Shown in pieces: positions 349 to 56,400 of a stretch of 64,000 bases of DNA (its first letter is position 1; each line of letters opens with the position of its first letter). The stretch is from Amoebophrya sp. A120 (taxonomy: Eukaryota; Protista; Dinoflagellata), in contig CAJINV010000006.1 of NCBI GenBank assembly GCA_905178155.1, forward strand, positions 3,030,860 to 3,094,859, read 5' to 3'. The translations under genes were made by a program, and so were the position numbers. The notes beneath the pieces are model-generated. The model ran no database searches, had not been told where the DNA came from, and worked only from the letters and a program-made list of their open reading frames with translations.

Positions 349-1111
349 GTTTTTGCTGGACACCAAAAAGTGCCTGCAGATGGAGCTGAAGCGCAACACC
401 GGGATATCCTGGGTAAAAACGTCCCCGTACCAGAGTCAAGATGGGAAATCTGCTAGACAAATCAACCAGCTTTGGTTGCTTCGCATGACGAATTTGTCCT
501 TGTAGTGCAATCCTGTTTAAGTATTTCAGCAGCATCACAGATCTAGCATATCGTGCTGCTTCTAGCGTCACAAGTTCCACGACAAGACTAGAAAATGCTT
601 CTCATGGGGCTCCGCATGAGAAACCTTTTTGGCATGCAGATTTGCATGACACCCCTGGCGTGGGGACATCTTTAATCAGGATACGGAATCGGGTGGACAC
701 GGTCGCTGAAGATTCTGAAACACTTAGAATGCTATCTATTGCAAATATGTCTGAGTCTGGAAGGTTGCAAATTTGTGATGCTGTCTCTGGATTGCAAAAA
801 GATTTGTATTGCATGAGTGACCAGCAAGAGGAGTCCAGTTGCTGCTACGCGGGGAGAACATTTCTCATGCGGAATAGGCATCACGAAGCCCGCTAAGAAT
901 CTGTGATGCTAGGTTATGCATGACAGGCATCATGGGTCATGCAAAATTGGCATGACAGACCTGGCAATCTTCCAGACCACATCCCGGGATGTTTGCGATG
1001 CATAAATGCCACGTTCGCACGAAGGGTCCGCCATGCAACCAGCAGTTCCGCGAGAAATGTGCAAAAATTGCGTGGATGCTCAAGTCCACACAAGGCCCTA
1101 CTCGACCGTGA
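349..1111 (+). CDS. 3' part of a uS13-like (probably mitochondrial) ribosomal protein; 5' end outside window
   Basis: Removing 405-683 and 733-1004 (+ one DR each) gives FLLDTKKCLQMELKRNTGIGWTRSLKILKHLECHVRTKGPPCNQQFREKCAKIAWMLKSTQGPTRP*; GIGxTRSxxIL resembles the uS13 H2TH motif. Confidence 0.6.
405..683. mobile_element. Introner family E (279 bp)
   Basis: TIR tatcctgggtaaaaacgtcccc...ggggacatctttaatcaggata; DR cggga/cggaa. Confidence 0.9.
733..1004. mobile_element. Introner family B (272 bp)
   Basis: TIR tatctattgcaaatatgtctgagtctggaa...; DR aatgc. Confidence 0.9.
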
Positions 1112-1934: not shown

Positions 1935-4900
1935 ATGCGTGCGTCTGCCTTCTTTTCCAAAACATTGCTCGCCAAAAAAGCGGCGGCGCCCGGTGCAGTG
2001 GCGCCCCACGTTGCCTCGGAATGCCTGTCACCCCGTAGCAAGTTACTGTCCTCCGGCACGACCACTACGTCGTCAGGCGGCAGCTGTGGCACGACAAGCG
2101 GCAGGAGTCCCACCAGAACAGAAAGTGATGCTGGGGGTTCTTCTACCACTGGAACAAAACAAGTTTCTGCCTTTGATTCCACCGAAGACGAATTCTTTGC
2201 TCGCAATAGTACCGCAACTACCGGTAGCAGCACGACTACAAGGAGTAGCAGAACCGCATCGCCGCTGGGTGTCGTAACCCGATCAAGTTCCTCCCCGGGC
2301 AAAACGAAGCTGGAAGAGATTCGCGATGCGGCTCGGCAACGGAGAGAAGAAAGGCGGATCAGCGTGTCGTCGACGTCTGCGAGTAGTACGACAAGCCCCC
2401 TTGCCCTCTATGAGAATATGCACAACTCCCATGTGCCCCTCATTTGTCATGCCAAAGCCCCAATTCAATCGCTGCGTTGTCAGACTGTTTGCATCACAAA
2501 TTCAGGAAGCGCAAGCAGTACTACTTACACCAGGCGCAAGATGAACTTGTAATGCACAGGCTCGATGTGTGTTGGTGTTTGTATTGCTGTTCGTGCCATG
2601 CAAATGAGGGGGAGGGGGAGTTGTGCACTCGCATACCCTCCGGAGCAGGGGCAGAAGTGGAACAACAGCATCAACAACTTCGACCCCGTCACCGTCCTCT
2701 GAGTTACGATATAATCCTGCTCTTCAAGGCGCAGCGGAGGACGCAGGTACTCTAATGTATTATTCGTATTTATTTTAGATCACAGGAAGAAGAAAACCAC
2801 ATGCAAATCCGTTCTTGAATGATCATCCATCGGTTTTTGTTTTTTTTAGCGGTGCTGGACGAGTATTTCAATTCTTTTATTTCGGTCTAGAAAAATCACA
2901 ATCAGCCTCCTCCGCCGGAACAACGGCCGCTGTCGCGTCGGCGCAAGAAGAAGAAGGACGACAGCTAAAAAACGTTGGAGCAGCGGCAGGTAGAGCATCT
3001 GTGCAGCAGACCCCAGAAGTGCTACGTACGGAAGACCTTTCGACGTTCAAGGCGGAACTACACGGCGCCAAGGGTCCGGAATTCCTTCAAGAACGAGAAC
3101 CACAACAGCTGCATGATCCGAAGACAAAAAAACTCAACGCTGCACCACCACCACCACCGCAAGAGTTTTTACTTGGCCAGGAAAATGTTGATGCGCGGGA
3201 ACATCTTCAACGTGGTCCAGATACAGAAGCTCCGCTGATGCTGGAAAACTACCTGCTGCGACCGCACTACCGCGTCCTGCCATCGTTTGCTACTCGACGA
3301 CGCGAAGCAGAAGTAGATGTTGACCTAGGGCAACAAGACCGAACAATCGTCGGGAGTTGTACTAGTGCTGACCACACGGCGGCTGGTGATCTCAAAAACA
3401 ATTACAACGACCCCGACGATATCTCACGAAAAAACTGTTTCACTGTGATGATTTTGCAAGTTTTGCATTACAAGTTTGTTCTGCATCACAGAGAAAATTT
3501 GCCATGCGAGATTCCTAAGGGAAAACAAAGCTAAAAAGCCATTGTCTTGCATGTGTAGCAAGACAAACACTTGTGAAATACATTTTCTGCATTACAAGTT
3601 TACAGTGAAACAGTTTTTTCTGGCGATAGACGAGCACCAGGAGCTAGTATCCTCGTCGTACTCGCGGGAGGTTTTCGTGACCACGGGAAGGAGCGGAAAA
3701 ACCTGTTTCACCGTATCGCAAGAAAAAACTGCTTCACTGTAAACTTGTGATGCACAAAATGGAACACAGAAATATTTGTCTTGCTACACATGCAAGAAAG
3801 TGGATTTTTAGCAGTGTTTTCCCTTAGGAAGCACGCATGGCAAGTTTTCTTGGTCATGCGTAAGGAACTTGTAATGCAAAAGTTGCAATCATCCTTACAG
3901 TGAAACACCTTTTTCGTACGATACACCGTGCACGAAGAAGAATACCTGAACGACGAGCGACGGCTCTATTTCGAGCGGCATATGAACTGCAAAAGCATCG
4001 TACTAGTATAAATTGCATTACAAATTGGCTTAGCATTACAAATTCAATCTGTAATGCGGATTTGCCTATAACAAAAAGATTTGTAATGCATAAATGCAAA
4101 ATTTAGTACGAGTGCGATACTTTTGCAGTGCATACGGCAGCAGAAGTACCAAATCCGCCCGCACGAAAACATCTGGTGCAGCTATGACAAGCACGGTTTT
4201 AATATGGCAAAAAACACAGGAGCACGATCTTCTAATTCTTGTCATCCGGCACTGCATCAGCATCCACACGTCGACCCAATCAATAACCGCGGTACAACAT
4301 CACTATCCGCGCCGAAACTAGACGACTTTTGCGAGCGGTACAAAGACGCTTCGCTCATCTTGCGGCTCCGCAGCGGCCTGATCGCTGGGTTTGACACATT
4401 GTTCGGGATCGGTGGTTTAACGGGAAGCACAACAGTATGCATCGCAAAAGTATCGTACTCGTACAGTGCACATCAATCATGCATAGACAAATCTCCTTTC
4501 CAAGCTAAATCAGCATGACAAACTCAAACTCCTCCGTCTGTCATGCTGAGCGAAGTTGTACTGGATTTGTTGTTCCTAGTACGATACTGTTGCAATGCAT
4601 AAGCGGCCGGCGGGGGACGAGAAAAAGTCTGCGAGAAACATCAGCAGCACAGCGGATTTTTTTTCAATAATCCACCTTCCGGTCTCATCCAGAGGTTTAA
4701 GCAGTTTCGAGCAAGAATGCACGAAAAAGTCTACGGATCTATCCTGTGCAAAAGTATCGTACTCGTACTAATTGCAGATATGCATTTACAAATTTCTTGC
4801 TCAAGTCAAAGCCGCATTACAAATTCTATTTCGCATGCTGGGGCAATTTGTCATGCGATTTGTACTAGTACGATGCTTTTGCAATGCATAGGATCCTTCA

Positions 4901-5707
4901 AACAGCAAAAGTTCGGAGTTCTGGAGAAAAACAACTCCTTGACGATGCCGCTCACGCACTTCTGCCCCAAATTATGCAAGAAAAAAACTTCTGTGTAGGT
5001 GCAAGTGTAAGTCTGTGATGCAGAAAATGGAAAACAGATACAACTGCCATGCCAGTTGTAGACACCCATGAAGTATATAGAAATCCTCTTTTCGTGTGTG
5101 TTTTCAAGTACTAAGTAGTACTAGTAGGAGTGCATGAAAATAAACTTTCTGTGTCAGCATAGTGCGGAGGAAGTTGTTTGTTGTCATGCTCTCTCACAAC
5201 TCGAAGACAATGACGCCTCCACTAACACAGTTTTTTCCTCGGATACAAATGGCTTCTCGGCCATTACGTTTCCCGTTATTTTTCCGGTGTGGTAGATTAT
5301 TTCGCATCTCCGTCCGGAACAAATGCGGACGATCCGGAAATATCAATTGCAAATATGTCTGGGTCTGGAACATGGCAATCTGTCATGCCAAATCTGAATC
5401 ATACAAAAATCTGTGTTGCAGGATTACCAAAAGCTGGCCACTTTTCACCAAGTGGGTAGGGCGTTTCTCATGCAGAATAGGCATGATAGAGGTCTCACAG
5501 AATCTGTCATGCTAGGTTCTGCATTCCAGACCTCATGCGTCATGTAACACCTGCGTCACAAGTTTGCATCTTTCCAGACCCAGACATATTTGCAATGCAT
5601 AGGAAAAATCTTTAACGGGAACAAGATTTGGATTTCTACCTGCTTCCTCGCCGCAGCGGTATCCAAGAGAAAAAGATGAAAGCTGCGTTTTGACGTACTC
5701 GTATTGA
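1935..5707 (+). CDS. Hypothetical protein, Ser/Thr-rich N-terminus; 8 introners plus one GT-AG intron (2747-2890)
   Basis: Continuous frame from ATG 1935 to TGA 5707 once elements and one DR each are removed (...HEEEYLNDERRLYFERQQKYQIRPHENIWCSYDKHGF...). Confidence 0.8.
2409..2635. mobile_element. Introner family D (227 bp)
   Basis: TIR tatgagaatatgcacaactcccatg...gagggggagttgtgcactcgcata; DR ccctc. Confidence 0.9.
3420..3628. mobile_element. Introner family F (209 bp)
   Basis: TIR tatctcacgaaaaaactgtttcactgt...acagtgaaacagttttttctggcgata; DR gacga. Confidence 0.92.
3714..3923. mobile_element. Introner family F (210 bp), opposite orientation to 3420
   Basis: TIR tatcgcaagaaaaaactgcttcactgt; DR caccg. 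Confidence 0.92.
3981..4134. mobile_element. Introner family A (154 bp)
   Basis: TIR tatgaactgcaaaagcatcgtact...agtgcgatacttttgcagtgcata; DR cggca. Confidence 0.92.
4436..4601. mobile_element. Introner family A, diverged (166 bp)
   Basis: A-type TIRs; decayed DR aacag/agcgg; frame restored. Confidence 0.8.
4740..4890. mobile_element. Introner family A (151 bp)
   Basis: A-type TIRs; DR ggatc. Confidence 0.92.
4973..5245. mobile_element. Introner family C, diverged/expanded (273 bp)
   Basis: tatgcaagaaaaaaactt...acacagttttttcctcggata; DR caaat. Confidence 0.85.
5341..5601. mobile_element. Introner family B (261 bp)
   Basis: TIR tatcaattgcaaatatgtctgggtctggaa...ttccagacccagacatatttgcaatgcata; DR ggaaa. 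Confidence 0.92.
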
Positions 5708-7244
5708 AAACATGAGTTTTTACTAAAAAGTGCGCATCTGTATTTTTATGTTGTACAGCATGCAACTTGTTGACGATTATGTTATGCGCCTGATGGTCAT
5801 GGGCATGCTCTAATGATAGAAACCACGTGAGCTGCGAGAGGTAAACTTCTGTGAGGCACTTACTACCACCGAAAGAGCGCAGTTTTTTGTCTGCATACCC
5901 GGCGGCTGAAAATAGCGAACTGTCCAGCACACAACCGCTTTTCAGCAGCGACCCCCACTCGAGCAGGTGAGGAACAAGATAACCGTGCTGGTAGTTGTTC
6001 CTACTTCACTCAGCTTCTCACGACGGCGCCGCTCGGTGCTAGCAGCAGGACCTCCACGGGAGCTGCACCAAGAGCCCGCGACTTTTTCTCCTCCTGGGCT
6101 GCAACATCTAGGAATAATTCCGCGGACGACCAGTACGTCTCCCCTCCTGCGGGGGTCGTGCTGTCGTGCTGAAGTTGGATTTTGATTTGGAGTTGTACGC
6201 GAATATGACCACACAGTTCTTGTGCATTGCCTTGTAATTGAAAACGAAGCACTTACAGTTACAACATTTCTCGATAATTGAAGTAGTGTGCTCCTGTGAT
6301 TCGAGACATTTAATGAGCACGACGAGATCAAGATCAAGTTGAAGACGCCTGCAATGGTAGTCTACTTACCACTGGTACTGTTGTGGTTTGATGAATATGG
6401 AAGCTCGTTTTTCGTCTTCATCAAGAGCAATGATGACAGCGCGACGGCATACGCGAAGAAAAATATTTGATGAAGTAAGTAAGTAATTATAAATGGAGTA
6501 CGCGAGCAGGAACGTCGGCAGTAGATGGAGTAGTTGTAGGTCGGCTGCACTTGCTGGATACTCAAAACGCTGATGTTCATCTCCTGCTTGGGAACGTGCT
6601 TCTACTGTTTCCACCCAAGCGTGGTTCGTTGTTGCTGCGAAGATCATAAGAACTACAAGACCGCTTTGACAGGAGCTGTTCTCGCACGTGTTTTGGTTCT
6701 TTTCCAATTCGAATTCCAACAAGTACATAGCTTTAAAACTATATCCGTTCGAGCTGTTGGTCGCGGACGCAGGAGCAGAACTAGAAGCCACTGCACTACT
6801 TTGCATAACTTGCAGTACAACTCGAGGAACTCCATCACAAAGTTCGTTCTAATCCTCAATCGATTCTCCCATTACTCCTTCCTGACGACTACACTAGGGA
6901 CAGTGACAGATGATCACGCGGCTTGGAGATGCTCTCGGATCCGTCAGTTCGACAAAGATAGAGTTTCTACTTCTACTTCTATCACACGACCATGATCGAT
7001 CAACAGAGCTCTATTCACTACACTAGCCAGTACATAATCTATCAGCGACATCTCTTTGTCTTATTCTCGGCGTTTTCTTTCTTTTGTTTATCGGCGCAAC
7101 TTGTAGAAGTGTCTGGTCGTACTGGAAAGACTTATGAATAAAAGTTATCATGTGTGTCTTTTCTCTGATGTTTTTCCGTCCATATGAAGATACTAGCATG
7201 TAGTTACAATAGCAAGATTGGAAAGAAAGTTTTATCACAAGAAG

Positions 7245-11277: not shown

Positions 11278-13057
11278 GTGCGCAAACTCTTTCCCTTCTA
11301 CCACACCTTCGAAATATCCGTCGACCCCGTTTCATCTGGGAAGAAGAAGTTCCTTCCTGTAGTCGAGAACCTGATCGATGAAAACACCTACGACAGCCAG
11401 CGGAACCGCGGCGCCAAGAACGCGAGAATCGTCCGCGTTTTCGAGCGGAACTATTTTACGAAGGCGTTTCTGTGGGATGTGCGGATGGAAGACTTGGCTG
11501 CGTCGTGTACTTCGGCAACAACATCGGGGATGACGATGGACCACGACAGTCGTGTCCGAAATAATGGGTCATCCAGCAGTCGTTCTTCAACAGCCTTTGC
11601 GTTGAGTGCTGCACTGGGCAACGGAACAGGTGGACCTAACACGTCACCAACAACTTCCGGACGTCGGATCACCGCAAACTCTTTGCCGGACCGGGAGCGC
11701 AGACTCAGTGAGTACCCGGAAAACCTCCCCGCGGGTCCCCCTTTATGACGCGCTCAGGTGTTACAATGTCAATCGTTGCAATAGAATATGGAAATCTGTG
11801 ATGCAAGAGTGCATGATATAGCCAACTTTCATAGGATCGCGCAGGACAAGTTCCGGCGCCCCAAACCCCACTGCAATTATCTGGCGAAATTTGTATTTCA
11901 GAAAGTGGAACGCCCTGCGAGTCTGTCATGCTCATCCCGCAAGACAAACCTCAGTTTCTGTGGTAACCGATCTGAGATTGTAACGCCTGAGCGAGTTATA
12001 CCCTTCGCCGGTGTTTTCTCCCGGCCCCATCAAGTTTGATCCACCTCCCAAACGACCGCCGTGTAGTACGAGCTGCAAGAACCCCAGCACCCCCGCAAGA
12101 ACAGATTCCTACAACAAAAAACACCTGGAACACGACCTTGCGGACGACCCGGGGTTTACGAATGGGATTCTTCCCCCTGAGTATTTCGAGGAAGACGAGA
12201 AACAACTGCCGTGTGGGGCTCCCTTTATACCTATTAGGAACAAGGACGGCACGATATTATTGCGACAGACACGACAAAACGTGCATCCGAGCTGCAGCCG
12301 CGAGGAGGAAGAGAACAGCCACCATCAGCAGCCTCGCCCAGCAGAAGATGCGACTTCGGGAGGAGGGGAAGAAGAAGTGCTGCGCTTGGTTGACTGTCGG
12401 GGAAATGACGTAGTTCGCGCCTGGGATGACGATTTCATGCACTTCGAAGACCTGCCTCCCGAGGCACAGGAGCTGGTTCCCATGCCGGAGATTCTTTTTG
12501 CTTCGCTGGGTCGTGGAAATAAGAGAAAGCGACGCAGAAGTGGGGCGTCATCTCCTTCTTCGTCCGAAGAGCGCTCGTTCTCGTCGGATCGCAGTAGCTG
12601 TAGTAGTGGTTCCGAGAGGATGGAGCAGAAGATCAGGAAGAAAAAACACAACTACACAATTGACAAACTTCCGAAGTTTGTGTTGCCAGACCACATGAAG
12701 ATTCGCGAGTTCGGAAAATTGAAGGGCCAGTTTGGGTATGAAATTCGAAAAATCATACGTCGGATGGGTTTCAGGACTGAGAAAACCAAAAGAAAAAGAA
12801 CCTGTAGGTACTTCCTACTCGTCGTGCAGTTTGTCGTGCATCAAGGGGTCGCTCGGCCCGCGCACCTTTGCAGAGCCTGGCGAGGAGCGCCGTTCTTCCA
12901 TCTGGTATATATAATTGTGCACCATAAACAAGCAAAAGCAATGCTGCTCGTGCATGATGCTCGGAGGTGCTCATATGTCGGTGTGAATGAAAAACAGAAG
13001 TTGATAAATCCGGGTCATTCTTGTTTTGCAGACTTGGAAGCAGCAGGCAAGCAATGA
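11278..13057 (+). CDS. Hypothetical protein; 1 introner; both ends uncertain
   Basis: ORFs 11278 and 12011 fuse in frame after removing 11744-12000. Confidence 0.6.
11744..12000. mobile_element. Introner family G (257 bp)
   Basis: TIR tatgacgcgctcaggtgttacaat...attgtaacgcctgagcgagttata; DR ccctt. Confidence 0.92.
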
Positions 13058-14235
13058 GCTTTTTCTTGTCTCAGCATAAAAAGTTATTCAACTTCCAGTT
13101 TTCTGTCCGAGACGAACCTCCCCGCCGTGTTTGTGATGCATATCGACCCAGCACCACCTTCGGCTTCCTCCTCGGCAGCCTCTGCCGGTGGGAACGCGTG
13201 CGGATGGGAGAGGAGATCGGACGTACTGTTTCGTAGTGGTACGAAGCAAAGTAGTTGTAGTACATCGTCAGGGGCGGGTCTCAATTTTCCAAACAACCGG
13301 CCGCGGCGGTGAAGCAGGTTGCGACCTCATCAAAGTCAGGCTTTTTACGATGTCCGATACAAAACATTCTCGGCTCCTGCAAGTGCCTATGTCGTGACAA
13401 GCACCAGTTTACAACGAACAGCACAGGTGCCCGAAGATGCGTCCTGTGATGCGTGAACCCCCCGTGGTGCAATAACTTGTAAACAAATTAAGTGCGATGC
13501 GAGGGCAATCATATGCTCTTTTTATTTTCAGCAGATCAAGAAGTCTCGAAGAGAAGTAGATTGACATACTTGCAGCTGAACAGTAATTATTGGCTCCTTG
13601 TTCATCTTTAGTCCTTACATCCTGTTCCTGATCTTCATGTGGACCTTTGATGGTGGATCACGAAAAAGTGCGGATCATGTAAAAAACGCAGATCTTTACC
13701 GTGACCGTGAGCTTTAGAATCTATCAATGTCATGAAAACAAATGGGATCACCAGCTGGCCGTAACACTGAGAAAAAAATTCGATGTTGCGTTGAAAAGTT
13801 CAAAAACAAAATCTTTTGGCCGACTTGTTCCAGCGAGATCGAGAAACAGAAAAATAGGAATTTCTGTGAAAGATGGAAGATCTAGCCGTGATCAAAGCAC
13901 CAGGCAGGCGGGTTATTTGTACTCTTCCCAGAATGATGAAAAATAAAGATTATGGACGCATTCGCATCAACGCATCCAGAAGTCAAAACCTGATGTGATC
14001 GCTCCTTCATGATGACTCACACCCTCGAGGACCTGCCACAGGTACAGCTGAACTAGAAAGAGTGAAGTTTATTTCCCTGAGTCTAGGTGTAGGTGTTCTC
14101 TATCTCTAAGTAGCTTATTGTGCCAGTCGCCAGTTTCCAACTCGATAGGTTCAGTTTCAGGTTGACTTCCCGATGAGGACTGGCGGTGTTTCATGAAAAA
14201 CACAGGAGAAGGTTTACGAAATTAAAAACCCAGCC

Positions 14236-16008
14236 ATGACGGGAGCATCTTCGCGAAGACCTCCGCAGGACAAAAATCGTCCCTCCGCGAGAGTAGGAGC
14301 TGCTTCACGATTGACCACCCTGCTGATAGGTGGCAACAAGTCCGCTAGTACCGCCCTCGACAACAAAAGCAAGACGACCCAGAAACGAGGAACGAAAGCA
14401 AAAACAGTTCCTCCCAGCACGAGAAATAATAAAGCCGCTAGTGTAACCTTCGTCGCTCCGGGGGACCTAATTTGCCGGAGTACCGAAAATACGTCTTTGT
14501 TGAAGGGAATCGGGATAACCGAGCAAGTAGCGACAGGACTTGCTGGAGAAACTACAACGTCCGCCTCGAAGAATAAAACAGAGCTCCGGGCGGCCGCTTG
14601 CGGGAAGCTGAAACAGGTTTCGCAATTGATTTTCGTTGAAACGGACCGGCATTTTGCGCTCACAGTGGGCGATGTTGTCGTGGGAAGGATCGTTTCGGTG
14701 CTGAACGGGAAATGGGCTGTGGACGTATAACTTTTTTTCAGTGCTTGATTTGTCATGGGGTTTTGGCAATAGGAGCGTGTGAGCGTCCACCTGGAAGTGG
14801 TCTGCTGAGACTGTTTCTTGCTCTCGAAAATTTAGTATCATGTTCACATGGAATTCGCACGAAAGGATATACAACTTTGACTAGGAAAGCAAATCATAAA
14901 GACCAAGGTGAAAGGACGAAAAAGCAACAAGTTGTATATTATACTTCCATTAGAAACTTCTACAACCACACCTCCAACAGGTCGGGCAGCCGCGTTTGGC
15001 CACCCTTCCGCTGGCGGCCATTCACCTGCCGAACAACGAGCAACGGCGGCGGACGGCGGAAGATTTATTGAACATCCGGGATTTTTTCAAGGAAAACGAC
15101 CTCATCGTCGCGGAAGTGCAGCGGATTCTGCAGCCGGATTCCAGTTATGCAATGCAAAAGTAACGTACTAGTAAAAATTGCATTACAAATTGACTCAGCA
15201 TTACAAATTAAATTTGTAATGCGGATTTGCATTAGCAAAAAGATTTGTAATGCATAAACGCAATTAGTACGAGTACGATACTTTTGCACAGGATTCCAGT
15301 TCCACCGCGGGAAGCCAGCAGGAGCAGATCTTTTTGCAAACCCGGTCCGCGAAGTATGGGCTGCTTCGGAACGGCATCGCGGTGGACCTTTTGGGCCGGA
15401 ACTTTTCCAACACCGGTTGTTCATCGTCCTCAACTACTTCATCGCAACTATCGCGGAAAAACCCGAATCTTCTCTACGGCAGCGACATCTTGGGCAAAAG
15501 CCGCATTGTGAACGTCAGGTGTAAGGTTCGGAATTCATCTTGTGACGAACTCGTGTTAAGGAGCACAGCATCAAGTTGTGGCGCAGTAGAGAAGAACCAC
15601 ACACCAAGAACCGAAACATCAACGACCGCCAGTCTGCAGCTGATCTTTGGCGCAAATGGAGTGGTTTTTGTCGGCGCCAGCCCGTGGCACGGAGTACAAC
15701 AACGTGGGGAAGCAGGCGGAGACGACTCATTGCATTTGGCGATTGACACACTGAATTTTTCCTCGCACGCACGTAACGCAGACACAACTGATGCTGCTGC
15801 AGCTGGTGGAGTGACAAGTAAACACAGGACTGCTCTGTCCAGGACTTGTCTACAAGCGATCGCGCTGTACCGAAAGGCGCTGGAGGAGATTTCCACTCAG
15901 GCCTCTTCCAGCAGTTGTGCAAATGGACGAAATGTAGGGATGGAGGGTGAGAAAATCTCTTTGAAGAGACTGGAAGAAAGAGTGGAAGAAATTCAGCGAC
16001 AGGGATGA
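14236..16008 (+). CDS. RRP4: Exosome complex component Rrp4 (EXOSC2)
   Basis: VAPGDLI, VGDVVVGRI..KWAVDV, LPNNEQRRRTAEDLLNIRDFFKENDLIVAEVQ, LQTRSAKYGLL, IFGANGVVFV match Rrp4 S1/KH motifs; GT-AG intron 14725-14980 and introner 15146-15295. Confidence 0.92.
15146..15295. mobile_element. Introner family A (150 bp), ends ATT
   Basis: A-type TIRs; DR ccagt. Confidence 0.92.
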
Positions 16009-28100: not shown

Positions 28101-30949
28101 CTCACATAGTTTTTTTCTTGCATAAGCCGCCCATCTGCTGTAGTGACACAACTGGTGGTGCAAAAATATGGCGTTCTCAACTGTTACATTCTCAACTGTT
28201 ACATGAATTTGTCATGCAGAACTACCATCAAGATCCACACGAGAAAGCTGCTTCGCATGACAAATTTGCGAAGGGCTAAACAGCGCCTAAATCTGTGCAG
28301 AACTTGTAATGCCAGAGGTGCAGCCTCCCCCCTTTCACTTTTGCAATTCTTGCATCACAAAGCCATGTAACAGTTGAGAATGTAACAGTTGAGAACGCCA
28401 TAAAAAATGAACGACGAGAAGTTCATCTCTAGTAGCTCTGCTGGAGGTGCAGGAGCTGTAGTGAAGATGAACACCGACGATGGCAGAAGTACAACCGCAT
28501 CCACCTCCTCCACCTCTTCTTTCTACGTCGACGGGCTCGTGAATGCCGCGGCCGCTTCGGTGAATCTGATTCCCCCGTGCGACGAGGGAGCTATATGCAA
28601 GAAAAAAACTGTGTAAGTGTAAATTTGTGTTGCAGAAGATGCAACAGAGTTACACCTGTCATGCCAGACAGCCATGAGGTCCTCTTTTCATGTGTGTTTT
28701 CCCTTACAAACCATGTATGACAGGTTTTCTCTGTCATGTAGAGCAAATTTGTGATGCTGTTCCTCAAAGGAAGTTACACTTACACACTTTTTTTCCTGGA
28801 TAAGCTAGTTACATGACGGAGCATAATTACGGAACCACAACAGTGACTAGAACCACGGGTTCTTTTGCAGCTTCGCAAAATCTTCTAAATCAACAGCAGT
28901 ACAACAATAGCAAAAATTCCAACCAAGAAAACGACTTCCAACTGCACCGCAACGCCGCGAGACACTGTAAAACCGCCTTTAATAACGGAGGTGTGGCCGC
29001 CTCCGCAAGTGGTGACGGCGCTGTTGTTCCATCATCGCAGCGCGAAACTGAAGATGATGTTGGTGGTGCAACAAACCTCAAAAACAACAACAAAATTCTA
29101 GAATCCCACTCCACCCGCATGATTGAATTTCACTGCTCCCATATGCAAGAAAAAAACTCATGTAAGTGTAAGTCTGTGATGCAGAAAGTGCAAAGTTGTT
29201 TACACTTGTCATGCTGGATGTGTGTCATAACCCACTTTCATACGTGTTTTCACGTACTAGCTGCGCATGACAGATTTTCCCTGTAATGCAAAGCGATTTT
29301 GTGATGCTGCTCTCCCTACAAACTTACACTTAATACACAGTTTTTTCCCTGGATATCCCACAGTATTTCCAACGGCTCGCTGAAAATCGGGGTGCTCGTG
29401 CGGGAAACGAACCCGGCTACCAACCAGAGCTTCTGGGTATCATATGTAAAGACGTCCCCACCCCATAGTTGTAATGCTGGTCTGCATGCTCATGCTGAAA
29501 ATGTTTGTCATGGGGAGCCCCATGAGAAGCATTTTCTAAATCGTGTTTTGGAATTTGTGATGCTCCAATCAGCATGATGCGCTAGATCTGGGATGCTGCA
29601 AAACTACCTGAACAGGATTACTCTACGAGGCCAAAAAACTTGTCATGCGCAACAGCCAAAGCGTAGTTATATATTTGTCTTGCAGATTTCCCAAGAACTT
29701 GGCTATGGGGTGGGGACGTTTTTGCACAGGATTCTGGGCGGAGAAAACCACGATGGCGACGGCCGGCGCGAGAAGGCGAACGCGGAGAAACGCAAAGTTT
29801 GTGGCGAAATTAAAGGGAGAAGGATACGCCGTCGGGAGCGACAACGAAGGTGATTTTCAGCACGATCCTGAGTTCGCGGAGGAAGTATCCTGTGCAAAAG
29901 TATCGTACTCGTATTGCATAATCATGCATTTACAAATCTTTTCCTCAAGGTAAATTAGCATTAGAAATTTTCTCTCTCATGCTGAGGAAATTTGTAATGC
30001 ATTTATACGAGTACGATGTTGCTTTTGCACTGCATAGGAAGATGCGGTCGATGATGCGAAGGTCGACGTTGAAGACCAGGATTACAATACCCTGAGCAAA
30101 AACGTCCCCACCCCATAGTCAAGTTGCAAACTCGGCAACACAAATCCAGAAGTTTTGGGAGCCACGCATGACAAGTTCGTCTCTGTTGTATTGTAAGTGC
30201 ATCTACTTAGCAAGGACAGCCGCATCACAAACCCATCTCTTTATCCTGTTTACAGCATTACAGAAACAGATCCCAAAACACGACTAGAAATGGCTCTCAT
30301 TGGAATGCGCATTACAAGTCTTTCTATCTTTGCAAATCTGCATGACAACCCTGGGGTGTGGACGTTTTTACTCAGGATATACAACTACCTGCAGCACGGT
30401 GGAGCCAGGTCTTCCAACATGTCGACCGCGGTACGGCCGCGCGGAGGAGGTGGTCAGCAGACGTATACCTCCCGAGGAGGCCCAAGAACTTCCACTTCGG
30501 CCAATCGCGGTAGCACTTTCTACCAGCAACCGCAAGCGGGCCACCGTGGAAACAAGAATTACAACAGGATGTCGTCGACACGGGAAGTAGAACACCGAGG
30601 TGAAGGATCAGCGGTAGAGTACGATCCTCGTCAAGGAGCGGCCCGCGGCCCGCAAAATAGTAATCCTCGTGGTCAACAGCAGTATCGGATGAACGGAGCA
30701 GGACCAGAAGCGCCACCACTTCGTGCAGCAGGAGGTTCTACTTTTCAACAAAACCAACAACGAGACGCACAACTACAACACCCGGGGGGCACCAGCAGCT
30801 CTTTGTTCAATCGTAACAAGCAGCACACGACAGCGACATCAATATCTTCGGGTAACAGCTACAATTATTCATCGCACCACGAAATAAACTACCGCGGATC
30901 GAACAATGCTGGAGGAATGTCGTCGGCGTCGAATGGGCGTTTTTACTAG
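19103..30949 (+). CDS. Very large low-complexity hypothetical protein (13 introners); unresolved frame change near 26630, may be two genes
   Basis: ORFs 19103, 20767, 22056, 22584, 25454 and 26136 join in frame; so do 26620, 28407, 28813, 29392, 29645 and 30197. Confidence 0.7.
20283..20525. mobile_element. Degenerate family F introner (243 bp)
   Basis: tatccaaaac..actgcttcac...gtggaacagttttttctatggata; decayed DR gcgcg/gggcc; frame restored. Confidence 0.75.
21722..22006. mobile_element. Introner family E (285 bp)
   Basis: E-type TIRs; DR cgacg. Confidence 0.92.
22356..22596. mobile_element. Introner family D (241 bp)
   Basis: D-type TIRs; DR cgagg. Confidence 0.9.
25252..25428. mobile_element. 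Introner, singleton family L, degenerate (177 bp)
   Basis: tatccacagaaaaaagtagcctt...aaggcgcttttttgtctgcata; decayed DR ccaat/aagat; removal joins ORFs 22584 and 25454. Confidence 0.7.
25866..26128. mobile_element. Introner family B (263 bp)
   Basis: B-type TIRs; DR gaaat/aaaat. Confidence 0.9.
27642..27864. mobile_element. Introner family D (223 bp)
   Basis: Near-perfect ~33-bp TIR; DR tgctt. Confidence 0.93.
27916..28124. mobile_element. Introner family C (209 bp)
   Basis: tatccaggaaaaaaactgtgtgagtgtaa...ttacactcacatagtttttttcttgcata; DR agccg. Confidence 0.93.
28167..28402. mobile_element. Introner family H (236 bp)
   Basis: ~38-bp TIR tatggcgttctcaactgttacattctcaactgttacat with internal 15-bp tandem; DR aaaaa. 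Confidence 0.93.
28594..28802. mobile_element. Introner family C (209 bp)
   Basis: C-type TIRs; DR agcta. Confidence 0.93.
29142..29355. mobile_element. Introner family C (214 bp)
   Basis: C-type TIRs; DR tccca. Confidence 0.92.
29438..29733. mobile_element. Introner family E (296 bp), ends ATT
   Basis: E-type TIRs; DR ctggg. Confidence 0.92.
29886..30036. mobile_element. Introner family A (151 bp)
   Basis: A-type TIRs; DR ggaag. Confidence 0.92.
30088..30379. mobile_element. Introner family E (292 bp), starts TAC
   Basis: E-type TIRs; DR tacaa. Confidence 0.9.
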
Positions 30950-30999
30950 AACAAAAGTGGCGGTATACGTGTAGTTGTACACCGAAATTTTTCACTCGA

Positions 31000-43614: not shown

Positions 43615-45075
43615 CTAGAAAGGTCATCGATCATCTTCTACGGCGGGGGGCAAAACGCACAGGGTTCTATTTGCTGACTTTGCAATACAAATTTTTGTCG
43701 AGTGCCCCACCTCTAAGATGACTGCTTTATTTTGTCCACAGGTCGACAGGGGTCAAAGTCGAATCGTTTGAACATACTTGCTACACGCAATTTACACGCT
43801 GGCGCAAATTTTGTGTATGTTCGAACTTTCCGCGCGTTTTTTTTAGCATCGGCCCGTAGTTCTAGCATTAAAGCAAGCTAGCATAAGCATCTGCACAGCA
43901 TCTGAACGCCATACGAGCAGAGGCTAGAAGTCTCTGAAGTAAAGTATTGCAACCCATATATATAAGAAAAGTACAGAGGAGGCAGTTTTGCAGCGAATCG
44001 CGGAAGAGTTTTTCAGCGAATCGCTGAAGAGCAGCAACCACTGTGAAGTACTTCTCCGTACACGCAAACTCAAGCCAAATGATCAAGCACTTTCGCTGAT
44101 TTTGATGAAGTTTTACCTTCGTGAACAAGTAGAGAACGGGTTCTCCAGCATGAATTATGTCGTGCAGTATAAGTAGTGGCTTTACCTCTTTTGATGTCAA
44201 AAGTTGTACGAGGGCGCACCAGGCACTTACATACAGCAGAACGGCAACAACCATGACGACAAGGACAAGGGGGCTGCGTCGTATATACAATTCTCACTGT
44301 CTCTGTGTCTGTCTCTCGAAACCCCATTCCCACTCCGAGTAAAAACGCTTAGACATCAGAGTGCTCGATTAGAAATACAGATGATGAACGGACCACTTCC
44401 ACGAGCATACTTTCTTCACCAATAATATGCTCGAGTTTTAGGATGAAGATGATGAACTACAACATCAACCTTAAGCTTTTTGTACAATATGCTCACCTGC
44501 AAGTGCAAGCACAGGTAGCAGCATCCGCTAGAGTGCAGGATGCGCAATGAACGTGGCTGCACCAGGCTGCTCTTGATTTTTTTTTTGGTTCCATCTTGCC
44601 CTCCTTTGTTCTTGGCGCCGCACCTGTCGATGCCTCGTCAGCCGTAGGCAGATGATTTAAGTCATGTCATTTGTACGAACTTGGATTTTCATCATTTTTC
44701 GTCGCTAAGTTTTAGGAGATTTTTGCAGAGAGCCACCCTGGACTGTAGAGCAAATTTGTAATGCTGGCACTCCAAGAGACCTACACTAACACAGTTTTTT
44801 CCCTGGATACTTCTACTTTTTCATCTAAGCCTGAAGCAGACTATAGCAGTGCCCCGGATGAAGATGAACATAATTCTAACATCGCACTCCAGATTTCCGA
44901 AACCGCGGTATTGTTCCAGAAATTTCTCTTCGACTTTGTCCCTAAACTGTTTGAAAAGATCGAGACGATTGTGGAACTCGAGATTTTGTTGTTGTTCGCC
45001 CTGGGTTGGAAGATTCTGCGGCGACGGCTGAACATGACAGAAATTCGTTTTCTGCTCGGGATCGGCGTGATTAGT

Positions 45076-45204
45076 TATCCTGTGCAAAAGTATCGTACTC
45101 GTAGTAATTGCATTTATGCACTACAAATCTGCTTCTAAAGGTAAATCAGCATTGCAAACAAATGCAATTTATAATATACTAGTACGATGCTTTTGCATTT
45201 CATA
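45076..45204. mobile_element. Introner family A (129 bp), absent from the main gene copy
   Basis: DR ttagt/ttggt; empty site at 55766-55770. Confidence 0.9.
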
Positions 45205-45255
45205 TTGGTTTCTACCTGGCGATTTTTGAGCTGACGTGCCAAACCACGAGCACCC

Positions 45256-45417
45256 TATCCACTGCAAAAGTATCTGATACCCGTAAGTATAAATGCAAGT
45301 CTTGCATTACAAATCTCGTTCCCAAGGCAAATCAGCATGACAAATTGCATTTCTCATGCTGAGCAAAAATGTAATGCAATCCATACTAGAGCGACACTTT
45401 TCCTTTTGCAGTTCATA
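45256..45417. mobile_element. Introner family A, shared with 56086-56240
   Basis: DR caccc/cacct in both copies. Confidence 0.9.
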
Positions 45418-45518
45418 CACCTGCTCGGGCTACAAGCTGTCGCGGGACATTCTGCACAGCCTCGCTTTTTTGGTGATCATCGTGGCGGTAAACTTCAACC
45501 TGCACTCGCTGGGGATTC

Positions 45519-45639
45519 TATCAAATGCAAAAATGTCTGGGTCTGGAAAGCTGTGATGCTGAGTTGTGCATGATTGAAGCGCGTTCAAAGGCAGCCAAGC
45601 ATGACAAGTTCTTCAGACGCCTGCTGATGCCTAGCACGC
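45519..45639. mobile_element. Introner family B, left part (shared with 56342), cut by the gap
   Basis: Matches the start of 56342-56593. Confidence 0.85.
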
Positions 45640-45739
45640 NNNNNNNNNNNNNNNNNNNNNNNNNNNNNNNNNNNNNNNNNNNNNNNNNNNNNNNNNNNNN
45701 NNNNNNNNNNNNNNNNNNNNNNNNNNNNNNNNNNNNNNN
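45640..45739. other. Assembly gap (100 N)
   Basis: Run of N. Confidence 1.
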
Positions 45740-46330
45740 AATTCATGTGCCTACTGTAGTACTGCTTGGGCTTCCGAAATTTGTTATGCAAACCTTGGCA
45801 CAGGGAAGCGACTGGATTTGGGATTTTGCATGACAAAAGAGGGGGAGGGGGAGTTGTGCAATTTCATACTACCTCAACGTGGTTCACTACGAATACTTGG
45901 AGCAAGACTTTGTGAAGACGCAGGCGGAGCTATCCAAGAAAAAAAGTGTGGTAGTGTAAGTTTCTTGGAGGAATAGCATCACAAGTTTGCTCTGCAGGAC
46001 ACAGAAATAAACCTGTTATGCGTGGCTACGACTTGAGAACACGTACGAAAATAGCCTCTGATTCATGTCCAGCATGACAAGTGAAACAGTTTTGCATTCG
46101 CTGCAACACAAAGGCACACTTAGACAGTTTTTTTCTTGGATAGGAGCTGGCCCGAGACCAGGAGCGCAACAGTGCGGACGGACGCATCCCACTGGTTCAT
46201 TTGACAAGCAAGGACGAACGAAAAGCTATCAAAGTGAAAAATCCCCACTCCCCATATCAAAATCGAAATCTGTGATGCGGGATTTATGTGCACAAATCCA
46301 ATCTGTCTAGCAGTAGAGGACTGCAGGCTT
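45740..46330 (+). pseudogene. Second fragment of the duplicate 7-TM gene (matches ~54409-55084) with D (right end 45868), C (45931-46142) and truncated I (from 46227) elements
   Basis: Exon text YLNVVHYEYLEQDFVKTQAELARDQER; DRs ctacc, ggagc, aaagc. Confidence 0.85.
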
Positions 46331-50462: not shown

Positions 50463-53400
50463 ATGCTGTCCCCGCAGGGGCACGGCCGTGGGCAGCGCTA
50501 CAACTTTCGCGTGCGGCGGAAAGATGTTGATTACCTGCGCGCTCATCTTTCGTGTGGAGCCGGCGGAACAAAAGCGGCACGTCGTCCTCTCCACGTTTCT
50601 TCGAGCCTCAGTAGTTGTGCTCTGGCCCGGTGTTTGCTTTTTGTTCTCTTACAGTTATTCATCTCGTGTACCACGACACCTGTTTCAGCCCTAATTGAGC
50701 CGGTTTCTTTTCCGGCCGAGGGTGTGCAGGACTACTGGACCTTGCTGCTTTATGACGTGGGGCTGCACGCGGGAGCGAAAATTCGCATAAAGTTGTATCC
50801 TGTGTAAAAACGACGTCCACACCCCACCGCCAAGTTGGGAAGTCTGCAACAAGAAATCTAGAAGTTTTGGGAGTCTTCACGCATGAAAAGTTCTTTCTCT
50901 CGGTATTGTAGTTGTACAGGTTAGAAGCTGCAAGGACACCCGCATCGCGTCGAATCGGTCTCCGTAGCCTGCTTCCAGCATTGCAAACGCGAACACACGA
51001 TCGAAGTAGGCTTCTCTTATGGGGATGCGCATTTTTAGAAGCATTCCTGTAATTGCAAATCTGCATGACAACTCTGGGATGGGGACGTTTACGTTTTTGA
51101 ACAGGATAAGCTGGAGTCCGAGAACAGCCTGAACAGCGAGGACGCAGAAAGTAGCAACTGCTACTTGCTACTCGTGACCCACGAGCAGTGGTCGAAGTGG
51201 AACAATGAAAGCAACGAGCCTTTTATCCAAGAAAAAAACTGTGTTAGTGTAACTTTGTGTTGCAGAAAATGCAAAACTGTTACTCTTGTCATGCTGGACA
51301 TGCATCAGAGGCAACTTTCGTACGTGTTTCCACGTTCTAGCTGCGCATGACAGGTTTTCTGTGTCATGCAGAGCAAACTTGTGATGCTATTCCTCCAAGA
51401 GACTTACACTCACACACTTTTTTTCCTGCACACGTTTCTCCCTGCCCGAGGGACAACTGAATTCATACCTGCAGACCACCTGGCGCAAGCCGCTGAAGTT
51501 GAGTAGCCGGACAAACAAGGACCCATCGATCGCCATCAAAAACGAGTTTCTTTTCCACCTCCCGAAGACCGCGGGGCGCGGGAGTAGGCTACAGGCAAAC
51601 CGGTACCATTTGGGGATTCTCAACCCGGACAAGAAAATCTTGAAGCTCAAGCATCAAAAGGAAAAATCCCCCCTCCCTACTTATATCGAAAAGGAAATCT
51701 GTGATGCTGGATTTGCGTACACAAATCAGATTTGTCTTGCAGTAGAGGACTGCACGCAGATCGCCCGCCTAGTTAGGGGCCTTTTGGTGTAGGCGCCTAG
51801 CATGGTGGACGGCTGTCCTGTAATCCTGACAGCATTACAAATCACCCGCATAGAGTGGCGAAGAGCCTGGATTTGCCTCCTCGCAAGACAGACAGGATTT
51901 GTGGCCACAAATCTGCATAACAAATTTTCGGAGGCATACCTTTTCGATGTGGGGAGGGGGGATTTTTCCTCTCAATATCAAGGGCTACGTAGAGATGCGC
52001 AATCCGGTCACTGTGCCAGCAGCGGAAAATATCCAAGAACAAAACACTGCACGGTGTAACTTTTTTGGAGGAACAGCCTTGCAAATTTGCCTGGCATGAC
52101 AGCAAAAACCTGGAATGCGCAGATACCATAGTACGTGAAAACGCCCTTTAATGGACCCTGCGATGCATGCTAAGCATGACAGAGACAGACGCAATCATCT
52201 TGCATGTGGAGCATCACGAATTTACACTAGCAACGTTTTTTTCTTGGATAGAAAAGGCTCTACTTGCCGGTCGGGAGATGAAATTATCGCTGGTGTCCTC
52301 TTCTCGTCCCGCTTACAGTCTTGTTGATGACCCGTCAAGTACATCAACATCCTCTCAAGGCACGAGCACGACGGCCGCGGGGCTCTTCGGTACTACACCG
52401 CTCGTCGTCGCGAGGGAGATGACAAAGAACAGGAACAACCCCACGTATGAACTGCAAAAGTATCGTACTCGTATAAATGCATTGCAAATTTTCTCAGCAT
52501 GAGAAATAAAATTTGTAATGCTGATTTGCGTTGACAAAGAAAGTTGTAATGCAAGACCTGCATTTATACGAGTACGATACTTTTGCACAGGATACCACGG
52601 GCGCGCTGACCATCCAGCAGGAGCTGCTATGAAAGTGAAAAAAGCCCCCACCTCATATTCAAAAGACAATTCCTGTTGCTGGATTTGTGTACACAAATGA
52701 ACTTTGTATTGCCGCAAGAGCTCCTTGGCGGCATACTTATTCTAAGACCATTTGGAGGGTACAACTCTTCCGGCTACCAGCTGAGCACGAGAAACAAGTC
52801 CGACGTAGGCGAACACGCATGACAGACTCGCTGCACAATGCGCCACATGGAGGCCGTTTGCCTGTACGCAAGACAAAGCAGATTTGTGGTCACAAATCAG
52901 CAACACAAATTTGCTTTTTGATATGGGGAGGGGAGATTTTTCCTCACAATAGTTGCTGCCCAAGGTGTTCCAGACCTGGCAGTACGTAAACGCGTGCACG
53001 GGGCTGTTCTATAACACGCTCAGGTGTTACTAGAATGTCAAACGTTACAATAGCGTCTGGAACTTGTCTTGCATGATAAGCATGACAGAATCGTAGAGCA
53101 TTCCAAATTGTGCAATACAAATTTCCACAGATGCTTCTAGTGCGGTTTGGTTTCTCCGAAACTTGTCATGCGCAATCCTGCGGGACGAGTCGGAGTAGGC
53201 CTCCAGATGTTGCGCATTTATATATTGCAACACAAATTCAGATTCTATGGTAACCGATTTGAGATTGTAACACCTGAGCTGGTTATATGTTCCTTTTCCT
53301 TCTTATGGGGGCGTCAGGATTGAAATCGTCAGAGTTGAAATAGTTTGCCATGCATAAAATGCAGCCCACAAAGTGCCTGTCTTGCAGAGTAGGCAAGTGA

Positions 53401-56400
53401 GGCAGATTGTAAGCCTGTTGAGGGGTAGAAACTGAGCTGCTAAAGCAGCATGACAAAAGACGTCTTCCTTACCCAAACAGCATGAGAGACTGGATTTCGG
53501 GGCTACCCAAATTTGTCATGCGCCACTTGGAAACTGGGCTCCAACTGGCATCCGTTTTATGCATCACAAATTATTTCAACTTTGACGATTTCAATCCTGA
53601 CACTACCATACTTCTTTTCAGCACGAAGTGGCGGTTTTCGGACCAGTATCCTGTGCAAAAGCATCGCACTCGTAGTAATTGCGTTTATGCATTACAAATT
53701 TCTTTCTCAAGGCAAATCAGCATTACAAACTGAATTTGTAATGCTGGGGGAATTTGTAATGCAATTTCTACTACTACGATACAGTACTTTTGCAGTTCAT
53801 AACCAGCTGATCCGAAATGATCAGAGCGGTCTATCCGGTGCAAAAGTATCGTACTCGTATTGCAATCATGCATTACAAATCCTTTTGCTACGGTAAATCT
53901 GCATTACAAACGGACAAAAATCTATGGAGAAACATCATCAGCGGCATTAGTTACGGCACAGCAAGATCATCATCATCATCTTCTTTTTCTTCTACATCCT
54001 CTACATCTCTATTTCCAGCTCGAAATACTACTACTACTACTACTACAACATCATCTTCATCTTCCTCCTCAGCAGCGATGTCGTTTCAATCAACAACAGC
54101 AAGTGATAGAATACCGATCCAGGCTTTAATGAGACTACAAGGTCGCAAAAGGATATTCTAAGGCGACAGCGCCGAGCAGAATAAATTCATCAAATCTGCA
54201 TTACAAATTTTATTTCTCATGCTGAGGAGATTTGTGATGCATTTATACGAGTACGATACTTTTGCAGGTCATACGCTCTGCAAAACGACGAAAGTATCCC
54301 AGAATACCGCCGCGCGCAGTACCTGCTGTACCGCTTTCGGGGAAACATCCCCCGAGGCTACCTGCACCTCGTGCTGACAACCGCGTTTTTTTACAAGGCC
54401 TTCTCGAACTACCTCAACGTGGTTCACTACGAATACTTGGAGCAAGACTTTGTGAAGACGCAGGCGGTATGCATTGCAAATATGTCTGGGTCCGGAATAA
54501 ACCTGTGATACTGCGCTGCGCATAATTGAAGCGCTTCCGCTTGCAATGGTAGCCAAGCATGACATGTTTTTCAGACGCCTTTTTAATGTCTAGCACGCAT
54601 TAGCATTACAAATCGCGTTTTTGCATGACATAGGAAGCTCCTCTTCCGCTGCGCATGCAACACAAATTTTCCAGGAATGCAAGACACGCATTACAGGTTC
54701 CACTTTTTCAGACCCAGACATCTTTGCATTTGATAGGCGGAGCTGGCCCGAGACCAGGAGCGCGACAGTGCGGACGGACGCATCCCGCTGTATCAACTGT
54801 AAAAATGTCTGGGTCTGGAGGAATTCATATTTGTCATGCTTGTCTGGCATGACTCTTAAATCTGTCATGCACGAAACCCAAGAGCTCCGTTATTCTGTGA
54901 TGCAGAAGCGCAGTTTGTCATGCAGAATAGGCAACACCTAGAAGGAGCTCAGAAACTTGTCATGCTGAGCCAGCATCTGTAGCCTCATCATGAGACGCCA
55001 CCCAGCATCACAAGTTTCCAGACATCCAGGGATTTTTACATTTGGTACACTGGTGCACTTGACATCCAAGGACGAACGAAAAGCCGCAAGCACTTCTTAT
55101 GCAAGAAAAAAACTGTGTAAGTGTAAGTCTGTGATGCAAAAAATGCAAAACAGGTACACTTGTCATGCCAGACACCCATGAAGTCCTCTTTTCATGTGTG
55201 TTTTCACGTACTAGCATTGCATGACAGGCTTTCTCTCTCGTGCAGAGCAAATTTGTAATGCTGGCACTCCAAGAGACCTACACTAACACAGTTTTTTCCC
55301 TGGATACTTCTACTTTTTCATCTAAGCCTGAAGCAGACTATAGCAATGCCCCGGATGAACATAGTTCCAACATCGCACTCCAGATTTCCGAAACCGCGGT
55401 ATTGTTCCAGAAATTTCTCTTCGACTTTGTCCCCAAACTGTTTGAAAAGATCGAGACGATTGTGGAACTCGAGATTTTGTTGTTGTTATCGCAAGAAAAA
55501 ACTGCTTCACTGTGAACTTGTGATGCAGAAAATGGAATGCAGAACGATTTGCCTTGCTACACCTGCATAGAACAACACTGGAGTTTCAACCCGCGCATGG
55601 CAAGTTTTCTTTGTCATGTAGAACGAACTTGTGATGCGAAACTCGCAAAATCGTTACAGTGAAAGAACACTTTTTTCTCACGATAGTTGTTTGCCCTGGG
55701 TTGGAAGATTCTGCGGCGACGGCTGAATATGACAGAAATTCGATTTCTGCTCGGGATCGGCGTAATTAGTTTCTACCTGGCGATTTTTGTATCAAGTGTA
55801 AAAATGTCTGGCTCTGGAAGAATGCAAGATTTGCCATGCATATTTTGCATAACCCATGATGCCTGTAATGCATGACCGAGCATCACAGATTTTTAAAGGG
55901 CCTCCTGATGCGTATTCCGCATGAGAAACGCCCAGTCCGCGTAGCACAAACTGCACTCCTCTTGCTGGTCATGCAATACAGATTTTTTTTACCTTCCAAA
56001 GACAGCATCACAAGTTGCAATGTTCCAGACCCAGACATTTTTGCATATTGATACTTTGAGCTCACGTGCCAAACCACGAGCACCCTATCCACTGCAGAAG
56101 TATCTGATACTCGTATAAATGCAAGTTTGGCATTACAAATCTCGTTTCCGAGGCAAATCAGCATGACAAATTGCATTTCTACTCATGCTGAGCGAGAATG
56201 TAATGTAATCCATACTAGTACGACACTTTTGCAGTTCATACACCTGCTCGGGCTACAAGCTGTCGCGGGACATTCTGCACAGCCTCGCTTTTTTGGTGAT
56301 CATCGTGGCGGTAAACTTCAACCTGCACTCGCTGGGGATTCTATCAAATGCAAAAATGTCTGGGTCTGGAAAGCTGTGATGCTGAGTTGTGCATGATTGA

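Follow-up and report, generated by a model that had tools for sequence, protein, structure and literature searches.

The 64-kb window analysed here (the whole stretch of 64,000 nt, from contig CAJINV010000006.1 of Amoebophrya sp. A120) is eukaryotic DNA, in which co-oriented genes on the + strand are interrupted by inserts of 110–330 nt that carry a short internal motif, GCAWBACARRTT. An exon of ISY1 in the window matches, at 100% identity, a protein that carries the label Amoebophrya sp. A120, and this protein aligns over four of the inserts once each has been taken out together with five further bases. Because the ISY1 exon matches A120 and Farhat et al. (PMC7789003) describe introner elements from that organism, the carriers of the motif are the published A120 introners, and hence belong to a known system. 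A sequence-only reading of this DNA had suggested that the motif may be the undescribed core of the system; the system itself, that of the A120 introners, is already in the literature (PMC7789003, PMC12130899).

In the A120 genome, Farhat et al. counted 29,850 introners, grouped into 1,954 families, with inverted repeats that begin with TAT, have a variable middle and end in an A-run, and with direct repeats at the junctions. The window elements share all of these features, as well as non-canonical removal and the multiplicity of families. The published inverted repeats are 8–20 nt and the direct repeats 3–5 nt, whereas here the terminal inverted repeats (TIRs) are about 28–50 nt and the target site duplications (TSDs) uniformly 5 bp. 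In the available text of that paper no transposase is reported, U1 small nuclear RNA was not detected, and both mobility and splicing are stated as open questions; it mentions no shared internal motif, spacing rule or division of labour. Gozashti et al. (2025, PMC12130899) list A120 introner family 38 as having a '5-bp TSD, TA/TA Termini', a length of 808–810 bp and integrase-like homology, and many other A120 families as 'TIR DNA, Unknown'; our comparison with family 38 is by description, not by sequence. Family lengths given there (about 107, 149, 209, 260 and 305–320) match elements of the window. The accessible part of that study ascribes diverse origins to the families and notes no internal motif common to them, while the present data point to one mobilising system. 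A text-level search of the literature, with figures and theses outside it, found no description of an internal motif in Amoebophrya introners; the portion of PMC6004678 that was available has no matching passage, and a motif-like string in PMC6482013 proved to be a primer.

Elements were located by TIR similarity and TSD match alone, without use of the motif. A first pass gave 64 candidates, against one in shuffled DNA, of which 59 were kept and 5 dropped. A second pass added 13 of 34 candidates (score of at least 17; shuffles reached at most 16), the 21 rejects being those scoring under 17, one composite and one tandem repeat. With the element at 56678, entered by hand, the window catalogue comprises 73 elements in 10 families, which, like the A120 introners, are repeated and non-coding. 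Family letters are those of the current study and cannot be matched by letter to the families A–L of the earlier reading. Both insertion orientations occur in the window (A 13/11, B 4/10, C 5/7, D 3/2). The TSD is perfect at 5 bp in 54 of 73 elements and at 6–8 bp in none (the finder required a partial match), and shows no base preference. All 30 consensus ends start with TAT, which was a search criterion, and 21–27 of the 30 have A at positions 11–15. The families, described earlier as having distinct TIRs, are therefore distinct beyond about position 15 but alike at their tips. A replication set was drawn from at least 160 loci matching the family-A TIR, of which the 79 listed all come from one assembly, which may be of the same species as the window. 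These hold 362 elements (median identity to window copies 83.5%), and together with the window they provide 15 families with multiple copies. All counts below cover the window and the loci of this one further assembly, rather than the genome, and p-values are optimistic as the copies are related.

The strict 10-mer GCATNACAAA matches the window 111 times against 1.07 ± 1.02 expected: 97 matches lie in the 73 elements, 11 in element remnants, 3 in 21.2 kb of other DNA, and none in 24.0 kb of hand-delimited exon open reading frames (ORFs). The enrichment over background and the scarcity in exons were thus both borne out. In this form, the motif is chiefly a family-A word (52 of the 97 matches), with a median of 0 in family B and no match in any of the three family-F copies; it is absent from 21 of the 73 elements and present at least twice in only 25. 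The 8-bp core GCAWNACA, on the other hand, is found in all 10 families and at least twice in 69 of the 73 elements (258 matches, against about 4 in shuffled elements), so that the proposed occurrence in every family, and in several copies per element, holds for the core and not for the strict 10-mer. In the full 12-bp consensus, GCAWBACARRTT, position 4 is W and the free centre is B rather than N (A only 3%), and elements carry 2–7 such sites. At the loci, the matrix trained on the window gives 18.4 matches per kb inside elements and 2.0 outside. The idea that the motif repeats the core of the TIR had to be abandoned, as one of the 30 consensus ends scores 6.1 and the remainder are negative.

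Conservation was measured in six families by defining sites in one copy and reading identity in another. Pairwise identity is 0.90–0.94 at fixed motif positions, 0.77–0.83 in TIRs, 0.62–0.68 in spacers and 0.39–0.65 at the motif centre. The motif is therefore better kept than its neighbours, as the earlier reading required, and it is also better conserved than the TIRs, which is apparently new. With fixed positions conserved and the centre base free, the pattern is the one expected of a recognised site that tolerates variation at one position, and not of passive descent. The alternative, that the motif is a relic of a common ancestor or of module swapping by template switching and is read by nothing, would account for the TAT tips and 5-bp TSDs common to all families, for the relatedness of families H and M and of F and G, and for a weak likeness of spacers. 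Within families, however, conservation at the fixed positions far exceeds that of their neighbours, the centre base being at least as free as the spacers, and when sites are masked only 6 of 105 pairs of family consensus sequences are related (H–M and F–G among them), the other 99 having no similarity. The conservation pattern largely refutes a relic, which we consider very improbable indeed.

The sites follow a spacing rule. Adjacent same-strand sites in the window peak at 31, 32 and 33 bp (42, 18 and 7 pairs), and a direct tandem at this distance occurs in 9 of the 10 window families; 20,000 random layouts gave at most 7 families with a tandem, a number reached in 29 of them. The tandem recurs in six families that the window lacks (K 5/5, L 2/5, M 4/4, N 2/3, O 3/3, P 2/2), and family L, at 110 nt, consists of nothing but a TIR, two tandem sites and a TIR. 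Outermost sites that point outwards lie 40–42, 49–54 or 60–63 bp from the tip (one at 68), with a best period of 10.1–10.5 bp (R 0.59, p 0.0006, or 0.006 after scanning). The phasing is found with the loci only (R 0.68), the fit also holds with the plain pattern, and with one end per family group (n=12) the median p is 0.003 and the worst 0.017. Spacing periodicity, named earlier as a check, is thus present for tandem and outward-pointing sites and fails for inward-pointing ones (see below). The 24-bp convergent palindrome, previously thought common, is confined in the window to families A and B (23 pairs) and at the loci to N. One half is usually degenerate, with 0.6–1.3 fixed-position mismatches against about 0.2 at well-kept family-A sites, and its halves show no compensation. 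It was accordingly rejected as the functional unit; what recurs is the direct tandem.

Whether the motif acts in DNA or in RNA can be judged from its behaviour on the two strands. An RNA role, in which it would be a protein-binding word or a set of pairing partners stabilising the intron hairpin for splicing, finds some encouragement in the focal element (nt 3981–4134), which folds as a long hairpin with its motif copies paired (z −6.4). In several families symmetric sites extend the terminal stem, sites with an inverted partner show a wobble bias (115 vs 80, p 0.015), and an 11-bp period, that of A-form RNA, fits the outward sites as well as 10.5 (R 0.58). Mismatch rates are nevertheless equal whether the motif is read on the sense (7.6%) or antisense strand (7.7%), and the best-kept sites are those lacking an inverted partner (5% mismatch vs 10%), which show no wobble bias (44 vs 43). 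The free position does not compensate between inverted partners (0.37 in A, n=179, where 0.35 is expected; 0.27 vs 0.41 in C; 0.00 vs 0.05 in E). Sites in a single orientation occur in 45 of 319 oriented elements (17 one way, 28 the other), strand calls at the loci having been taken from ORFs and AT skew, which left 116 of the 362 loci elements without a call. Families D and L have every consensus site in one orientation, although D inserts both ways, and of the motif bases in D only 10% are paired with those of another motif. In view of the strand-neutral conservation, the lack of compensation and the skipping of an element that has no motif (below), the data favour a DNA-level factor over a binder of single-stranded RNA, and a role of the motif in RNA seems to us quite improbable.

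The TIRs behave differently. Their arms fold with each other in 82–94% of inner positions, with left–right covariation in families B, C and I and little in A, E and H, and on the sense strand G·U outnumbers A·C in them (282 vs 192). Sense-strand wobble in the TIR stem (229 vs 159) exceeds that in spacers (odds ratio 1.49, p 2.5e-4), although the G·U excess is non-significant in the window alone (74 vs 60). A mutation bias linked to transcription was ruled out as the cause, since spacers are symmetric (119 vs 136; 1519 vs 1572). The family-specific ends are likely to fold in RNA and so guide removal, and motif and TIR would then answer to different levels, a distinction that is apparently new. 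By eye, the inner TIR in families A, C, E, H, K and L is often a family-specific 6-bp unit present twice, as at nt 5341–5370.

Removal from transcripts was read at joints in contigs of runs X3 and X5, the RNA status of which is guessed. Among the 15 of 27 joints listed, 11 leave out a single element with exactly 5 further bases, another removes a GT-AG intron and three connect different copies. The degenerate element at nt 12737–13142 gives an unambiguous joint: the left cut falls 1 nt ahead of TAT and the right cut 4 nt past ATA. These positions can also account for the other 10 element joints, the focal joint (3975->4135) having 5 ambiguous letters. Removal of element plus 5 bases places 68 of 74 junctions in ORFs of at least 100 amino acids, whereas +3, +4, +6 and +7 give 42–44, and an element-free homologue aligns through D, B and H elements only when 5 bases go with each. 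In these probable RNA contigs the elements are thus skipped together with one TSD copy, and reading frames are restored. Raw RNA runs X9 and X10 contributed no more than 17 reads and 1 read, respectively. The joint 28588->28803 is found in DNA run X1 too and was left out of the splicing count. Among the 15 of 133 joints listed with that run there is no antisense joint of family D, and skipping of the element at 29438–29733 was deduced indirectly, from a contig starting at 30380 and from depth arithmetic.

Insertion polymorphism is also evident. The regions 44750–46330 and 54400–56460 are partial, rearranged paralogues (about 95% identical) with at least 6 element presence/absence differences, among them a B and a C element 3 nt apart across the two; one copy includes a 100-N gap at 45640–45739. 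Sites that lack the element and retain a single TSD copy are found in the comparison of these paralogues and in DNA run X1. A second genomic copy of nt 28589–29200, at about twice single-copy depth, lacks the element at 28594 and diverges after about 29200. The differential insertions between paralogues this similar represent recent turnover of several families.

We regard it as moderately probable that GCAWBACARRTT, a word found in nearly all families, is a double-stranded DNA site for one shared mobilising protein, the TIR stem serving splicing. The protein might be a cut-or-copy transposase, possibly integrase-like or IS3-like, or the DNA-binding partner of one. It would grip each element at the internal sites and position itself on the TAT tips; the tandem and tip distances would amount to whole helical turns and so place the bound subunits on one face of the DNA and in register with the cleavage site. 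If only copies with intact sites are copied, the motif would be kept while spacers drift. The family-specific TIR arms would base-pair within the pre-mRNA and determine where it is cut in splicing, which would make the motif dispensable for that step. The earlier suggestion of a common trans-acting factor is thus supported by the conservation, by the low number of related family pairs and by the spacing grammar, and of the candidates offered for it, the RNA-binding protein is disfavoured.

A different kind of DNA-level factor has to be weighed against such a mobiliser, namely a host protein that binds double-stranded DNA in chromatin or during transcription and marks the elements, for example by recruiting the U1-less splicing machinery or by packaging them, so that carriers would be tolerated and not favoured in copying. 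Any binder of double-stranded DNA would suit the strand neutrality, the tandem spacing and the phasing, and the undetected U1 and unreported transposase of A120 fit this explanation, as does the lack of any transposase match among the 150 ORFs searched (below). The ratio of motif to spacer differences, 0.30–0.35 in distant pairs, is still 0.42–0.47 in the closest. Only two same-site paralogue pairs are present, one of them without any differences; in the other the called sites show 0/36 differences against 11/100 in spacer and inner TIR, which hints at constraint after insertion. With TSD mismatch as a proxy for age (72 vs 309 elements), the intervals span zero. A splicing mark is harder to reconcile with the motif-free element at 5660–5897, which is still skipped with 5 extra bases, or with the elements at 4436, 4740 and 4973, which have no real tandem and yet are skipped. 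Rare substitutions at fixed motif positions (2.5%) also come close to those in spacers (3.2%, an underestimate), and phasing to the exact tip would follow more readily from a protein that cleaves at that point. On balance a host binder is rather unlikely.

Several observations count against a shared mobiliser and should be set beside the evidence for it. Inward-pointing sites are unphased (n=10, p 0.24), and family A, the largest and the one to which the focal element belongs, has inward sites only. Family G lacks the 31–33-bp tandem (0/6). Tandem spacers, with an identity of 0.61 within families, are slightly alike across families (0.33, against 0.27 when shuffled), so that the module may go back to a remote common ancestor. 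The wobble bias of partnered sites and the 11-bp fit, both given above, have the same tendency, as do rare motif variants with the same wobble lean (p 0.016) and the constraint hinted at by the same-site pair. The motif-free spliced element is a single case and has a GT donor. The motif is also unlike the TIR, whereas the repeats of the Emigrant element, considered below, copy theirs. Finally, no transposase or integrase Pfam match was found in the 150 longest of 211 ORFs from the loci, which represent less than 1% of a genome.

Other searches for the protein gave similar results. A G-family copy of 815 nt (L040:4650–5464) resembles the published family 38 in size and TIR length, but its insert of about 575 nt (L040:4810–5390) has no recognisable transposase and only two spurious-looking ORF hits. 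No TIR match was found in viral contigs, and no match in Rfam. The TA..TA termini point to IS3EU/GingerRoot elements (PMC10045372, PMC12730594), as described in the text available, which have TA..TA (TAY..RTA) ends and TIRs of at least 30 bp, like the elements here. Their TSD is usually 6 bp, in contrast to the 5 bp found here, and an autonomous partner there carries an IS3-like DDE transposase, of which the ORFs searched here gave no sign.

Binding of a transposase to subterminal repeats of a miniature inverted-repeat transposable element is known from Emigrant and Lemi1 (PMC1636448), so the principle itself is established. In that system, going by the part of the paper available, short repeats lie internal to the TIRs in both orientations and are arranged differently at the two ends, as here; those repeats copy part of the TIR of one family, whereas the present motif is unlike the TIRs and common to about 12 family groups. 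What appears to be new is such a TIR-unrelated word with a spacing rule across these groups. Repetition, conservation above the flanks and strand-neutral behaviour are features that the motif shares with subterminal protein-binding repeats in general, such as those of hAT, CACTA and mariner elements. The likeness to hAT or CACTA subterminal sites proposed by the sequence-only reading survives as an analogy: the 5-bp TSD occurs in the hAT5 variant, 8 bp being usual in hAT, but CACTA/EnSpm elements have CAC..GTG termini and a 3-bp TSD, against TAT..ATA and 5 bp here. Transib elements also make a 5-bp TSD, and their spacer corresponds to helical turns. Transib and RAG (PMC1131882, in the text available) combine a conserved tip with an internal site at a fixed spacer, a layout like the present one, but the tip is a CAC heptamer and not TAT, the spacer is 23 bp, the A-rich nonamer differs from the present motif, and multi-site tandems are lacking. 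The nonconventional introns of euglenids (PMC11282704) share a TIR-based RNA stem, TSD-like repeats and non-canonical junctions; the available text describes no internal DNA motif common to them.

A more speculative extension, possible but doubtful in our estimation, is that introners obey two codes. A universal mobiliser, perhaps domesticated and unrecognisable as such, would read in DNA only the phased internal word and the bare TAT tip, and the TIR arms would be an RNA stem that measures the U1-independent splice cuts, 1 nt before and 4 nt after it. For this reason the arms would be free in sequence and need only self-complementarity. Any DNA that gained both codes would then become a scarless new intron, which would explain how about 2,000 families can exist in a genome without a known transposase. 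A single shared word with its spacing rule would unify the A120 introner families under one machine and separate what the DNA-level and RNA-level machineries read. The 110-bp family L offers a bait with which to find that machine, and a binder other than a known transposase would amount to a mobiliser of a new kind.

Table 1. Coordinates of the focal introner and of other elements and regions of the window.
Feature	Position (nt)	Strand	Remarks
Left TSD copy, CGGCA	3976..3980	+	joint 3975->4135
Family-A introner, 154 nt, 4 sites (focal element)	3981..4134	.	skipped along with one TSD copy (likely-RNA contigs)
Left TIR arm	3981..4008	+	TAT tip, A-tract, family-specific inner part
Motif site 1	4015..4026	+	inward-pointing, 35 bp from left tip
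Motif site 2	4033..4044	+	half of 24-bp palindrome, degenerate in most family-A copies
Motif site 3	4046..4057	-	32-bp direct tandem with site 4
Motif site 4	4078..4089	-	
Right TIR arm	4107..4134	-	
Right TSD copy	4135..4139	+	TSD CGGCA perfect, 5 bp
Family-D introner	405..683	.	sites all in one orientation; skipped in likely-RNA contigs
Family-C introner	733..1004	.	skipped; example of 12 in window
Family-E introner	2409..2635	.	skipped; example of 6
Family-B introner, 2 sites	4973..5245	.	no tandem, still skipped
TAT...ATA element without motif site	5660..5897	.	best score 5.5, cut-off 8.5
Family-F introner	11744..12000	.	no strict 10-mer, 4-5 degenerate sites
Degenerate TAT...ATA element, 406 nt	12737..13142	.	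unambiguous joint
Family-G introner	28167..28402	.	4 sites, no 31-33-bp tandem
Family-B introner	28594..28802	.	empty site also in DNA run X1
Family-D introner, opposite orientation	29438..29733	.	removal restores ORF of 832 amino acids
Partial paralogue of 54400-56460 gene	44750..46200	+	differs by at least 6 elements present or absent; one TSD copy left at empty sites
Family-H introner	51652..51977	.	element+5 removal aligns gene to element-free homologue
Family-I introner	53304..53610	.	
Family-J introner, single copy	60808..60980	.	two sites 33 bp apart

A few further features of the window and loci deserve mention. The GT-AG intron of ISY1 (nt 37279–37488) starts G-TAT and has one perfect and one weak motif site; it is possibly a decayed introner turned canonical. 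The region 14725–14980 likewise has one motif site. A family-A element at 34108–34248, with a perfect TSD and three sites kept, lies where the + strand has no long ORF. At 53832–54273, the halves of a family-A element lie on either side of an unrelated low-complexity stretch of about 260 nt, which may be a captured segment; the TSD matches at 4 of 5 positions. A GC-rich repeat of about 800 nt is common to L009:771–1570, in an I-family element, and L074:1493–2360, in a D-family introner; together with the G-family insert described above, this nested repeat suggests that introners may offer other elements a safe place to insert. A different repeat class is represented by the GC-rich 1.2-kb insert at 30948–32157, bounded by 52-nt direct repeats (96%) and containing a 12-nt unit in inverted arrays, and a tandem array of a C-rich 10–11-nt unit at 63750–64000 runs off the end of the window. 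In a relative, protein P0002 fuses part of ISY1 with a homologue of a gene 12 kb downstream (35933–38262 and 50685–52006 in the window), and is probably a merged gene model.

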